Of a stretch of DNA of 29,019 nucleotides, positions 12,001 through 18,000 are shown piece by piece (the first letter of the stretch is position 1; each line of letters begins with the position of its first letter). Source of the DNA: a virus (lineage: Duplodnaviria > Heunggongvirae > Uroviricota > Caudoviricetes); IMG/VR virus record IMGVR_UViG_2579778660_000004, positions 1 to 29,019 of that record; one strand, written 5' to 3'. Position numbers: made by a program.

Positions 12001-15000
12001 GCGCCGGGCGAAAAGTCATGCCCAGAAGTGGGAGCGAGTTTGCGCCGCGCTGCGGGAGCTGAACAAGCACCGGGATATTGTCCGACAGATTGTCGATTCC
12101 TCCAGTCGTATTGTGTCGGAAAAGTGATTCCTGGGGAGGGCTTATGGCAAAAGTATTTACACAGGAAGAGCGAGAAAAAATTAAAGGGCAGATTGTTGAT
12201 CTCGTACGCCAGAGCGGGCGCGAGACGTTACGACAACTGGAAGCTAAAATGGGGGCAACCAGATATCTGATAAGTATTCTCGCCAAAGAGCTGGTTTCGA
12301 GTGGTGAAGTATACAACTCTGGCTACGGGTTATTCCCGTCAGAACAGGCTCGTAAGGACTGGCAAAACGCCCGCAAAAAACTCTCAAGGGCAAAGGTGAA
12401 GAAAACGGCTGTGGTTGATCCGGACCTTATCAGGTCATTACCAGACGGAGAAATACGCCGCTACGATAGGCGTCAGAACATAATTTGCCGTGAGTGCCGG
12501 AAAAGCGAAGTTATGCAGCGTGTACTGGCGTTTTATCGGGGAAACTTTCAGGAGGTGCTGTTTTGAGCCAAATTAATAATCGGAACTTCGTGAAGTGAAA
12601 GAGAAAGCATAATCCAAATCTGAATAATTAAATTCAGCACTGTGAATAAAATAGAGTCCTTAACCTGAGGGATTTCTGCACCCTCAGAACAGCAGGAGGC
12701 CGCCCGAAAGGGCGGGGGAGATAATAATGGAAATAACTAAAGAACGATTATTGGAAATAGCAAATCTTAGTGATAGGGCATTAAGTGATGGGAGAATTAT
12801 TTCTCCTGATGCTTATGAATCAGTTACAAGTATAGAAATAATAACGATGGCTAGAATGCTTCTTGCGCGCTTCAAAGAAGAATATAAAAAACAGGTAGAT
12901 AGCAATGCTAATATATATGATACTTTGGACAGTTGGGGAGCCTGGGCTGTAGCTGGAAATAGTTCTATTGATTGGCAGGAAATAGCTGATAAATATAAAA
13001 ATGTTGTTCCTCATGGTAAAAAATCACGTCGTCAGTGCAGCAATGATGAAGGGCGAGTTATTGACATTAGTATCCTTAGGTTAGAAAGATATAAGCAACA
13101 AGAATATGAGTTAATTGTTGCTCATTTCGTGATTGGTTTATCTCTTCGTGCTATTGCAAAACAACAAGGATGTTCAGATGGAACAATTCGTAAAAGATTG
13201 CAAAAAGCCTTAGGTTTTTTGACTGGATATATAGCAATTACCAGTTAAGAGTCAGCGGGTTTTTTACCAGTGTAATGGTATAAGGATACTCCCATGTGTC
13301 TTACATGATATGGAAGTGCTGTTGCTGGATGCTTTGTGATACTCTTAAAGCGGAGGGGAGAGCCTTCCGCTTCAATTTCTGCGTCCGAAACGGTCGTAGA
13401 GAAAAATTCTTTCCATTCATTGAATTTTACTGCTGATTTGTCAGACTTTATATAAATTAGAATTCCTCCATGATCGTCACGTGACGTACCCGTGCCGTAA
13501 CGTTCGGTTAGCTGAATCCAGCCATTATGAATAGATTTTGGGCCTCTCCATAATTTTGCTTCACCGATCCATTCGAATTTTCCGAATTGATGTTTAACTA
13601 ATAAATCAACGTGACCGCCATGTTGAGTATCATGTTCAACATCATAAAACCTACCTTTCAGGAAATTTTTGATCGACGCTGTTAGCTCGTCCTCTCCCCA
13701 CTTAGCATCTTGATAGAAGTGTTTGTCATTTTCTAAATTCTGAATAGCGTCGTCTAAATCTTCATAGAGTTGCTTTACAAAAATATTTTTGTCTGCAGCT
13801 AATTTTCTTTGAACCATTCCCCTAAATTCAGGATCCATTCTAATTAATGATTGAAGGTCTGCAGTACAGATGTTTACATCACTCATGCAGACTCTCCAAA
13901 AGACTCGAAGGAGTAAAGTATGGATAAAGATACTGGCTAAAATTATCAACCAATTCGCCAGTTTCTGGATGGTAAAAACTTCCTGTGTCTAAAGCATAGG
14001 AAATAAGATCATCTTCAACTGGTATTGGTTCTTCCGTTAAATTATCCATGTATTGAAAATGCATATCCAATAGGTGTGCTTTATAGCTAGATAAATAATC
14101 AGTTGCTTTTATTAGCAGGATATAGTCATCTTTCGTATCAGTTAGATAGGTCAAACCATTGATAAGGGTTTTGTATGTAAAGTGATTGATATTTTTAGCA
14201 TCTTTACTAACCAGAAAAAGAAAAAGATCACGACACACACTGCGAACAGGATCATTAAAATCCTGCTCTATTTGCGTGATAATGTCGTGATATATACTCT
14301 TTTTCATTTATGGCCTGATGATCTCGCTCTTCTTTTCTCTTCACAGGACTTAACAGAATCCAATATTTTTTCAACAATAAATATAATCGAATCAATGTTG
14401 TTACAGTTCTTCGCAATTGCTTCATGCAACCTAATTCTAGGATTATCAAGCATTGTCCTTTTCCCTGGTAATATTAACTCTACTGATAAAATATGTGAAG
14501 AACTTTGTGGTAAATCCCAAATTTTTCCCAACTTAAACTTTGTCAATATTGGGCTTGCGGACTCTCCACTATGATGGTAAACATCTTGACGCAAACACTT
14601 TTGACTTGGTTTGAGTTTTAAAGAACTTGTATTGCCATCTGAGGTGATAAAAGATACATGAGAAATTCTGCCATCTACTTTTTCGTAAAGATCTTGTATT
14701 GAACCAAATAACTCAAGGGGATTGTTTAAAATAACGCCAGCTTCTTTTTTTATAAATTTAGCCACAAGGTATTGTTGAGGCTGTGATTCACTTCTTGGAA
14801 GGATAGATAAATCAATCGTAAGAATTAATATTTTTTCTGCAGGCATTAGCATGATGGTATTAAAGCATTGCGTGACTTGGCGTGTTTTGCATTTTATTTC
14901 TCCACCATTAGCACGTAATTCCATACCCGCATCGCTAAGATGTGTTGGGTCAAGCTCTATCACTTCAGTGTAATACGCTTTGGATAAAAAAACAGCAGTG

Positions 15001-18000
15001 TCAATTTGTTTATCACGAATGATATCTTGACGTAGTTCAGCAAAATGCAGCTCAGTATCAGCAACTAACAGCTCCTCTCTGGATAAAGGAGTTGGGTATT
15101 TTTCTGAGAAGGGGCTATTGTCCTTTTTCTGATTTGTGAAAATTGTTTGTAATTTTGCTACGTCTTCATCGGTGATTCTATAAATAGAAAGTAATCGATT
15201 CCCGCTAAAAATTAAACCTTTCCAGAAATCGTCGATTCTATCTTTTAGGTCGGGATTATGCTGAACTACACTATTTACACGTTCAATAAAAAGGGGTAAT
15301 CCTTGGGCCGTTACACCCAGTGATGAACCAAGAAGCTTACGGGTGTTGCGCCAGCCAAAGCGTGAATTGATGTTTTTTACTGTTTGCTCAAGCATTAACA
15401 CTTCCTTAATTTTTCCTTAACAATTTAGGGTGCTAAACTTCTTTGCGCAGTTTACACAAAAAAATAGTGCGTACGCAAAAACTATCTAACATGATGAGCT
15501 TTAACCGGGAAATTTGTATATGTTGTGAGCATAAAGTTGGCTGAGAAATCTAAAACGGGTCGAATGACTACGGGTGCTTGAGGCTATCTGCCTCGGGCAT
15601 GCCACCAAAGGCCGATAGAGAAAAGTCCCAGTTAACATTACGCGTCCTGCAAGACGCTTAACATTAATCTGAGGATATATCTATGACTTGCACCTATAGG
15701 TTACCTCTTACGTGCCGAAAGGCAAGGAGAAGTGGGCTATGAAGCAGCAAAAGGCGATGTTACTCGCTCTAATCGTCATCTGTTTAACCGTCATAGTGAC
15801 GGTACTGGTAACGTGGAAAGACCTCTGCGAGGTGCGAATCCGAACCGGTCAGACGGAGATCGCTGTCTTCACAGTTTACGAACCTGAGGAGTAAGAGACC
15901 CGGCGGGGAGAAATCCCATAAGCGCTAACTTAAGGGTTGAACCATCTGAAGAATGCGACGCCTCGGTGCCTCGTTAAGACGATGCCTCGCGTTCTTCAAT
16001 TGCGTTTTGTAGGCTGTCAGGGATACTGTCCCACGAATGGCCACCTGTAAGCTCCAGATGACCATTTTTGTTATTCTCCACAACGAGTTAGTTCTTCTTT
16101 TCGGATCCGGCACTTCTGGGGGGGAAATCCAGCGATGGCTGGATTATGTCGTCAATTAAAAATGCGGCGAGTAGATTAGCAAATATCCACGCTTTCGCGA
16201 GTTCAGGTTCCTTTGCACGCAAAGCATCCAGGTGCAGCAAACTTTTGAGCCGCTTAAAAGCCAGTTCAATTTGCCATCGCAGACGGTAACAATCAGCCAC
16301 TTGCTCTGCTGAATATTCATCTTCCGGTAATGATGTTAGCAATAGCACATGGCCCACTGCTTCCAGCGCTTCCGCCTGAACTACTCGTCCTTTTCGACGA
16401 TTCTCGCTGAGCAGTCGGGTTTTACTGATTAATGCTTTTTCGGGAGGAAGTGATACGGCAATGAGACGTGCCGGAAAGGGAGCTCCGGCTTTTTTATTAC
16501 CTGAATTGCCTATCATTACAGTGGTTTCACCGTTCTTACCGCAATCCAGCCCGCGCAGAAAACCCATCATGTCAAAGCGCATTCCTTCTGCAGTTAACCA
16601 GCGCAATCCTCGCCAGTGAACCCGGACGATATAATCAGCTTCTCCAAAAGCAAGTGAGCGGATACATTCGGGACGCGAACCGAATCCCCGGTCAGCAATG
16701 CGTATCTCGTCTGCCGTTTGCGCAAATCGGTCCAGCCGTTCAGCGTCTCTGCTGTCGGTTAGCTCAAAATCAGTGAACTGACAGGTATGAGGATCATATC
16801 CCATATGTAGTCGCCATTCAGCGCTGCCGCCCCCGGGCGCACTGATTGCTGTTCCATCGACAAGACGCAATCTCTTTCCGCTTGTACAACCCGTAACTGC
16901 GGCGCGTACAGCAAGTGTTTGTGCGGCAAGTATGCCAAACCAGTCGGCGGCATTCCGCAGCCGCTTCAGGAGAGCCACGTCAGATAATGTTGCAACGTCA
17001 TGGAGCTGAGCCCATGCAGTGACTTCACGTAATGACATCCCCCCGGGGCCGTAAGCCAGCCCCAGACGTAGCAGAGTTGCAGCATCACGAATTTCGCGGC
17101 GGCGGGTTAGAGCCCCGGCATTACGTGCCGAAGTATCCAGTTCTTCGGGCTTACCAATATGGGCCAGAATTGCTGACCAGTTATCGTGAGAGTAATTCAT
17201 CGGCACGTTAAATCATATCAGGCGTAATACCACAACCCTTAAGTTAGCGCTTATGGGAGAAATCCCCGTCACCTCTGATGTGTCAGGCATCCTCAATGCA
17301 CCCGATTTTGCCCCTCTCGATATTTTGTTTTTAATTAATAAATATTATTAAACAGAATGTACAATGTCATAATGTTCTCATTGTTGTTTTTTATATCACG
17401 CGCAGTTTACCTTGTATTCTTAATTTATATGTTTTATATATTGTTGTGTTTTCTTGGTTATTGCCTCATGTGAAATATTAATTAGAATCCTTTGGGCTTG
17501 ATTTGCGCGCAGGGAGAAGATGGATGGCCCCCGTAAAGGGGAACGCTATTTACCTGGAAGGATTCTAATGAAGAGTTTTGATAAATTGCGTGAAGCTTTG
17601 AGTGAAAATGGACTCTATGCGGTGCGTATCGAAAATGGAGAAATAATTTACACAACTGTAATCCCGGAAGATCATATAATTTTATCTGTTGAAGCTTTTA
17701 TCGAATACATTGAAAGGATTGGTTTTAAGGTCATACGGGATTGAGTTATAATCTATAAGCCAGCCTGAACAACTGGCAACCTACAGCGCCATTGGAGAAT
17801 GCAATGGCGCATATACAACTGGTCAAACAAACATCTTCTGGATTACTTCTCCCGGCGACACCGGAGAGTTGTGATTTCCTGCATCAAATAAAGATAGGTG
17901 AGTGGATACACGCTGATTTTAAGCGCGTTCGTAACTACGCATTTCACAAGCGTTTTTTCAAACTCCTGCAACTCGGATTTGATTACTGGACTCCGGTCGG

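Follow-up and report, generated by a model that had tools for sequence, protein, structure and literature searches.

RexAB, which is borne on lambdoid prophages and expressed in the lysogen, is the only precedent we found for a protein of the RdgC fold in phage exclusion. RexA is the DNA-binding half of this lambdoid exclusion system, and its partner, RexB, is a multi-pass membrane protein. Lambda RexA belongs to the RdgC/IML3/CHL4 fold group, and RdgC binds DNA non-specifically and inhibits both RecA strand exchange and LexA cleavage (PMC11077077). The ring-forming RdgC of E. coli (PDB 2OWL) is the product of a solitary core chromosomal gene. Among described nuclease systems, Hachiman (HamAB), McrBC and Gabija have an NTPase or helicase partner, and type II toxin-antitoxin (TA) systems on plasmids and prophages couple a small acidic protein to a downstream nuclease, usually an RNase, with a palindrome upstream. 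The validated GAPS systems of Vibrio GMT islands comprise one or two genes. Here, we describe an operon of three genes, A, B and C, in a 29,019-nucleotide stretch of Caudoviricetes DNA (positions 1 to 29,019 of IMG/VR record IMGVR_UViG_2579778660_000004, referred to below as the window). It is a nuclease operon of mobile elements that probably serves immunity or addiction, and its set of partners is unprecedented.

A preliminary description of this sequence had given three minus-strand open reading frames (ORFs) linked by overlapping stop and start codons, and their sizes and junctions are exactly as described. The genes are as follows:

14304-15395, minus strand: gene A, 363 aa with an ATG start; RdgC-fold protein, putative DNA-binding or sensor subunit
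13879-14307, minus strand: gene B, 142 aa, small and acidic; putative adaptor or inhibitor of the nuclease
13245-13886, minus strand: gene C, 213 aa; PD-(D/E)xK nuclease and putative effector, with an N-terminal helical extension

The TGA of A overlaps the ATG of B as ATGA (14307-14304), and the stop of B and the start of C share ATGAGTGA (13886-13879). An AAGGA at 15407-15403 lies 7 nt 5' of the A start codon, and an alternative GTG start for A is present at 15401. The triad has a GC content of 0.367, compared with 0.514 in the replication region on its left (9000-12600) and 0.463 in the whole window, so the lower GC suspected at first sight is real. RefSeq names all three products hypothetical protein. 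The comparison with described systems leaves clear differences. The triad has more genes than the validated GAPS systems. Unlike HamAB, McrBC and Gabija, its proteins carry no Walker A or other NTPase motif, and none of the PADLOC models of these three systems matches it. RexAB shares its carriage by a lambdoid prophage; however, RexA is absent among the structural matches of A, no PADLOC RexAB match was found and no membrane partner is evident. We therefore rejected a RexA-like identity for A and treat RexAB as an analogy only.

A, B and C are very strongly conserved as a unit. In a search of about 106 loci with hidden Markov models of the three families, the order A-B-C on one strand was found in every locus with enough sequence, with intergenic gaps that are overlaps or very small. 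These loci were reached through homologs of either A or C, with A identity falling to ~20%. The A route led to triads in Salmonella prophages and Yersinia, and the C route to Vibrio parahaemolyticus, Shewanella, V. lentus, metagenomes and a phage contig, with plasmid triads in Pseudomonas, Moritella and the cyanobacterium Calothrix. IMG/VR viral contigs contributed 41 loci and metagenome contigs another 46, the latter found with an alignment of a distant A subfamily ~20% identical to the A of the window; a scan of genome contigs with gene A itself gave a single locus. Relatives are thus found in Salmonella, Klebsiella, Enterobacter, Yersinia, Vibrio, Shewanella, Moritella, Pseudomonas and Calothrix, triads being common in the prophages of Salmonella and Klebsiella. 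The allele of the window is present in 14 of 5,426 complete E. coli genomes, including enteropathogenic E. coli (EPEC) E2348/69, in which the triad is E2348C_RS07435-45. In a phage collection, megablast matched only the hok/sok part, and tblastn with A returned one weak Acinetobacter match. The proposal of a translationally coupled operon is well supported by three proteins conserved from Enterobacterales to cyanobacteria and by a recurrent B/C overlap, and the alternative that the three genes would not recur together fails against a triad that is invariant across varied mobile elements and taxa.

Some loci depart from the standard form. In two E. coli prophages (L028, 5485-6581; L037, 5487-6583), a frameshift or stop divides A into two ORFs and leaves B and C intact. 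B is enlarged in L069 and A in L074. At L062 (8743-10630), A is absent and a 423-aa protein lies directly upstream of C; its C-terminal 120 residues are a B domain, it has a second partial B-like stretch, and its N-terminal 240 residues are unrelated. A DUF4332 protein is encoded just upstream of it. A is retained in about 105 of the 106 loci, and no locus was seen in which B is lost and C intact. Given the A-less L062 and the broken A of L028 and L037, B and C appear to be the tightest pair, with loss of A tolerated.

The nuclease assignment comes from gene C. Its AlphaFold2 model, built on 39 homologs, has a predicted local distance difference test (pLDDT) score of 92.9 and the alpha-beta-beta-beta-alpha-beta core of the PD-(D/E)xK superfamily. 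A catalytic set of E65, D94, E109-A-K111 and Q125 is invariant in these homologs, down to 27% identity, and is located as expected, on the helix, strands 2 and 3 and the second helix. The stretch 'GHVDLLV...EWIGEAK', from which a nuclease had initially been proposed, is present and holds three of these residues, D94, E109 and K111. The top structural matches are the type II restriction enzymes BamHI, BglII, BstYI and OkrAI, at 8-14% sequence identity. Next come McrC, the CdiA-CT EC869 DNase toxin, SwaI, Hachiman HamA, NucS, NucC and a long series of further PD-(D/E)xK nucleases, with Cas4 and SfsA also among the matches; these restriction-endonuclease folds bear out the initial proposal. With fold and motif both present, the nuclease call is supported: the model gives C a restriction-endonuclease fold with its catalytic residues in place, and DNA cleavage is its predicted activity. 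Within the PD-(D/E)xK superfamily, to which it belongs, C falls into no defined family. None of the 39 homologs, compared one by one, fell into any Pfam family, and the only matches returned by a sequence-profile search of the PDB, to Rab proteins, were rejected as spurious.

The likeness of C to the BamHI, BglII, BstYI and OkrAI enzymes is that of a shared PD-(D/E)xK structural group. C differs from them in its N-terminal helical extension of roughly 60 residues and in its position, always beside B and nearly always with A. No cognate methyltransferase is encoded in 12610-15917 or is a conserved neighbor in the ~106 loci, where methyltransferases occur only sporadically in the flanks; the triad is therefore not a classical restriction-modification (R-M) system. 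The RefSeq/PGAP start of C at 13838, giving 197 aa, is 16 codons too late. The first 20 residues of the 213-aa form are conserved among the 39 homologs, and the conservation of these upstream 16 codons, together with the 4 or 8 nt by which C repeatedly overlaps B, places the true start at 13886.

Gene A is the largest and best-conserved component. Its structure model (pLDDT 84) consists of a three-helix N-terminal region (aa 1-63), alpha/beta domains and a long C-terminal helix, and RdgC is its sole significant Foldseek match (E 1e-5, probability 1.0). On this model, A has an RdgC-type DNA-binding fold, and DNA binding itself is predicted. Gene A had no Pfam match at E<=1, including PF04381, and 63 diverse members of its family, run one by one, matched nothing in Pfam at E<=0.01; a sequence-profile search of the PDB likewise gave no match. 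Because an hhalign comparison of the A profile with E. coli RdgC was without signal (probability 0.4), we do not call A an RdgC family member. A shares the RdgC fold and differs from RdgC in being ~60 residues longer, with an N-terminal helical region, and in being carried by mobile elements beside a nuclease gene. The family comprises 499 clusters at 50% identity in a profile search, nearly all of 340-390 aa. Across the 63 diverse members, the polar residues D195, Y237, R269, H274 and W293 and a motif CLRxExYH are kept, a pattern of conservation that suggests a specific functional site.

Gene B is homologous across all loci and fast-evolving. Its isoelectric point is 4.3-5.4, and acidic residues (D+E) outnumber basic ones (K+R) in all 10 loci compared. 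No match was found for 13 members of the family in Pfam or for B against PDB sequence profiles, and the Pfam scan revealed no recognizable DNA-binding antitoxin domain. The overlap of B with C, 4 or 8 nt in length, recurs in most of the distant loci. The preliminary description had assigned no motif to A or B, which still stands for B but not for A, given its RdgC-type fold. It had also noted the lack of a Walker A motif in A, and this is borne out in A copies from ten loci. Nor is a Walker A conserved in any of the three proteins across these ten loci, and Pfam gave no NTPase domain; the pattern in a single C copy (L010) is a chance match inside the ExK region.

A-B-C is horizontally mobile cargo of prophages, plasmids, transposon-like elements and small integrative islands. 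In Shewanella, the triad is the sole cargo between a resolvase and an integrase, and in V. parahaemolyticus, it lies in an integrase island adjoining rpoD. One triad adjoins TnsB-like and AAA_22 transposition genes, another lies beside ParA on a 19-kb plasmid, and a third adjoins AbiEi on a Pseudomonas plasmid. HipA is a further TA gene found beside a triad, as are AbiEi and hok/sok. In Salmonella prophages, the triad lies antisense in the Q-to-holin interval. In E. coli, it is part of a 3.3-kb low-GC block (~12610-15917) made up of a Q-antiterminator gene, C-B-A and hok/sok, which is ~97% identical between lambdoid prophages with differing flanks. The neighbors on the right of the triad are as follows:

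15572-15894, plus strand: hok/sok type I toxin-antitoxin locus (Pfam HOK_GEF, E 5.5e-20; Rfam sok, 91.7 bits)
15918-17254, just right of hok: IS186/IS421-type element with a 12-bp target duplication, GGGAGAAATCCC

Both neighbors had been named before, as a hok toxin and an IS186 copy, and both identifications hold, the first by Pfam and Rfam. The sok RNA (15572-15744) adjoins hok and reaches the Rfam gathering score. The inverted repeats of the IS186/IS421-type element (15906-17266) are imperfect, with 36-nt arms that include the target duplication and are 89% complementary. The element is missing from an otherwise matching prophage (L021), and the copy in the window is a later insertion. In sister Rac-like prophages, the interval from DUF977 to hok, the equivalent of ~12600-15700 of the window, holds unrelated and mostly antisense cassettes (L111/H70, L112/H72, L113/H76 and L114/H88). 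These include an antisense 675-aa protein, an antisense pair of 184 and 310 aa, and a C5-methyltransferase with an antisense O-methyltransferase and an ATP-binding protein. The DUF977-hok interval is thus a variable cargo slot, in agreement with the accessory hotspot proposed for this position.

On its other side, the triad meets a Q gene rather than the replication module that had been taken for its immediate neighbor, and a conserved element lies upstream of A:

12727-13248, plus strand: Q-antiterminator gene, 173 aa, with PF06530 and a sigma-70 region-4-like helix-turn-helix
15449-15490, minus strand: conserved upstream element ~75-110 nt upstream of A, candidate promoter/operator

The Q gene (GC 0.347) converges on C and shares its last 4 nt with the end of that gene. 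In every enterobacterial lambdoid copy sequenced past the stop of C (L001-5, L019-54), C runs up to or into a PF06530 Q gene at its 3' end. The junction is kept between triads with only 57-60% identity in C and between the E. coli and Salmonella versions of Q, which are only 33% identical. No PF06530 Q neighbor is present at the Yersinia, Vibrio, Shewanella and plasmid loci. The Q gene accompanies the triad in lambdoid prophages and lies outside the core system. A terminator would not fit into the junction, which implies that the operon and Q interfere with each other's transcription. The window prophage has another Q-like gene, DUF1133, at 18690-19232.

The upstream element emerged from an alignment of the 220 nt 5' of A from 11 enterobacterial loci whose proteins are 50-75% identical. 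A block of the form ..CTCTTAnCAnnTTAC..TTTTTGCG(G/T)AC(C)GCACTAAT.. is conserved in 10 of the 11, in surroundings that have diverged, and is missing at the Yersinia locus (L006). It contains a palindrome, GCGTACGC (15476-15469), with the consensus form GCG(G/T)AC(C)GC. The preliminary description had proposed a promoter here with a TTGCGT -35 (15478-15473) and a TAAACT -10 (15454-15449). TTGCGT does fall inside the conserved element, but a sigma-70 consensus scan upstream of A found no promoter scoring at least 9/12; judged from the sequence, the element is a reasonable but unproven candidate promoter.

Searches of databases and literature gave little that is specific to the triad. A, B and C match no family in Pfam or NCBIfam, and A and B match none in PADLOC-DB 2.0.0, which dates from 2023, at E<=1. 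C matches only a candidate family in that database, PDC-S54, with an E-value of 0.0016 over 63 residues of the nuclease core. The combination therefore has no match among named defense systems in PADLOC-DB 2.0.0, Pfam or NCBIfam, as had been supposed. PHROGs 12777, 11490 and 9664 match the triad, and all are of unknown function. No description of the triad and no mention of its accessions (six RefSeq proteins) was found in the literature, the prophage screen of Brenes & Laub 2025 being outside the scope of this search, and no defense system with an RdgC-like component is described in the literature searched. The triad accessions and six related ones are absent from the DefensePredictor text and supplements, and a domain-centric defense discovery paper held nothing relevant to the triad.

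We favor, with a probability of about 0.5, the view that A-B-C is a self-contained immune system directed against phages or mobile elements, a view that rests on genomic context. In its support are the invariant triad, its sporadic horizontal spread, its cargo or hotspot position and its low GC, together with an intact restriction-like nuclease that comes without a methylase and an RdgC-fold partner, for which RexA provides a precedent. The broken A of L028 and L037, beside intact B and C, points the same way; such gene decay is typical of costly accessory genes. Type I and type II R-M genes also occur in a few of the flanks from 23 metagenomic loci, where each family matches 2-3 of 134 flanking ORFs (raw counts).

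Several observations weigh against immunity. The co-localization with known defense genes is weak, some of the R-M matches may be orphan phage methylases, and the remaining triad neighbors are not recognized as known defense genes. In the alternative cassettes of the DUF977-hok slot, PADLOC recognizes the C5-methyltransferase alone, which makes the slot a hotspot of unannotated cargo. Effector swapping is a common hallmark of defense families, and none was seen when we looked for it 3' of distant A homologs. No homology to any validated defense protein was found. The link between A and RdgC is structural only, with no kinship detected at the sequence level and a global Foldseek template modeling (TM) score of 0.30-0.35, low because the domain orientations differ, and RdgC is itself a recombination modulator, not an immune protein.

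Alternatively, the triad may be an addiction module in which C is a DNase toxin, B its coupled antitoxin and A a DNA-binding regulator or third component. Several features resemble type II TA systems: a small acidic B lies directly upstream of C and overlaps it in most loci, the B-C pair occurs without A in L062, and A can be lost with B and C intact (L028 and L037) while loss of B beside an intact C is never seen. Triads also lie by ParA on a small plasmid and beside hok/sok, AbiEi and HipA, and the palindrome in the conserved upstream element suggests autoregulation. A two-part TA system would, however, have no need of A, the largest and best-conserved gene and one kept in nearly all loci, B has none of the recognizable DNA-binding domains of antitoxins, and the toxin would be a restriction-enzyme-like DNase where type II toxins are usually RNases. 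Most copies, moreover, lie in prophages or chromosomal islands, which need no plasmid-type stabilization. We consider an addiction module unlikely on this balance, and we find it equally unlikely that the main role of the triad is to stabilize its carrier by post-segregational killing with phage defense as a secondary effect. Since many TA systems also defend against phages, addiction and immunity overlap.

A role in DNA metabolism fares less well and seems to us quite improbable. An RdgC-like A could act on RecA, recombination or the restart of replication, for instance as a brake on SOS-dependent prophage induction, and it is similarly improbable that A works with a structure-specific nuclease or that the module is a counter-defense or anti-recombination device. 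The best structural match of A is RdgC, with its effects on RecA and LexA (PMC11077077), the PD-(D/E)xK superfamily includes repair and recombination enzymes, NucS, Cas4 and SfsA are among the matches of C, and the close convergence with Q in lambdoid copies could point to involvement in the lysis-lysogeny circuit. Yet C matches best to type II restriction enzymes, to McrC and to toxin DNases, not to resolvases or repair nucleases, and conservation of the triad is just as strong on plasmids, transposon-like elements and islands of non-phage origin, where there is neither a Q gene nor an SOS-inducible switch. A is unrelated to RdgC at the sequence level. A sporadic, low-GC, hotspot distribution is also atypical of a housekeeping-type role.

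Least probable of the functional alternatives, and very unlikely in our view, is a stand-alone restriction enzyme, either modification-dependent (type IV-like) or regulated in another way, with A and B as specificity or loading subunits and no sensing, an idea that overlaps with immunity. It would account for the closeness of C to BamHI, BglII, BstYI and OkrAI and then McrC, for the lack of a cognate methyltransferase and for a DNA-encircling partner, which could act as a loader, but the triad lacks the NTPase of McrBC and of the other type IV enzymes that translocate, none of the SRA, YTH, PUA or Mrr-N reader domains was recognized in A or B with Pfam, and the identity of C to restriction enzymes is only 8-14%. 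Chance ORFs and phage structural or metabolic genes are ruled out by the conservation, fold and context of A-B-C.

If the triad is an immune system, its three coupled proteins may assemble into a complex in which C is the effector, a BamHI/BglII-like PD-(D/E)xK DNase. B would be its obligate acidic partner, tethering C and keeping it in check, and A would be the sensor, engaging phage DNA as it invades or replicates, or a DNA-bound protein of the phage. Sensing would license C to cut DNA, so that the invader is destroyed or the infected cell killed. We propose tentatively, and regard as somewhat doubtful, that the triad represents an NTPase-free class of immunity in which a ring- or clamp-like A of the RdgC type senses invading DNA and frees the BamHI-like C from B, with the overlap with Q serving as a switch. 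The feature that A recognizes could be a free DNA end, an intermediate of replication or recombination, or a phage protein on the DNA. Where the carrier is a lambdoid prophage, transcription of the operon would start from its own promoter, antisense to phage transcription. Upon induction, early-right transcription would collide with the operon, with no gap to Q, and may silence it; by this proposal, the prophage would not be attacked by its own defense. In the lysogen, read-through from the operon could produce antisense RNA over Q and help to hold the late genes off.

The element that carries the triad in the window is a Rac-like lambdoid prophage integrated adjoining ttcA. Positions 1-26324 are 99.98% identical to the chromosome of E. 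coli STEC367, and 26324-29019 have no counterpart there, which indicates a source strain with a different right-hand (head-gene) prophage segment. Between ydaT and ydaV, a replication-initiator-like gene (9466-10590) is represented by two incomplete pseudogene fragments in the STEC367 annotation, and the prophage is therefore probably defective. Near the left end, an RNA at 1557-1735 reaches the Rfam gathering score for RalA, the antitoxin of RalR. AB-type toxin loci lie on either side of the lysis genes. In the RefSeq annotation of the identical STEC367 region, 19620-20838 encodes a scabin-related ADP-ribosyltransferase and a subtilase-family AB5 binding subunit, and 22192-23332 encodes an enterotoxin A family protein and an 'enterotoxin' subunit.

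Even as an addiction module, the triad would be a new three-component DNase toxin system. If it acts in immunity, three families that are dark to Pfam would become one widespread and compact system, with an A family that reaches from EPEC E2348/69 and Shiga toxin-producing E. coli to Vibrio, Pseudomonas and cyanobacteria. Given its frequency in prophages of Salmonella and Klebsiella, the triad could affect host range in phage therapy. The convergent junction with Q offers a testable route by which a prophage may avoid targeting itself. A nuclease would here be paired with an RdgC-fold DNA binder in place of an ATPase or helicase, and the fold shared by RdgC and RexA would gain a general role in the sensing of foreign DNA.

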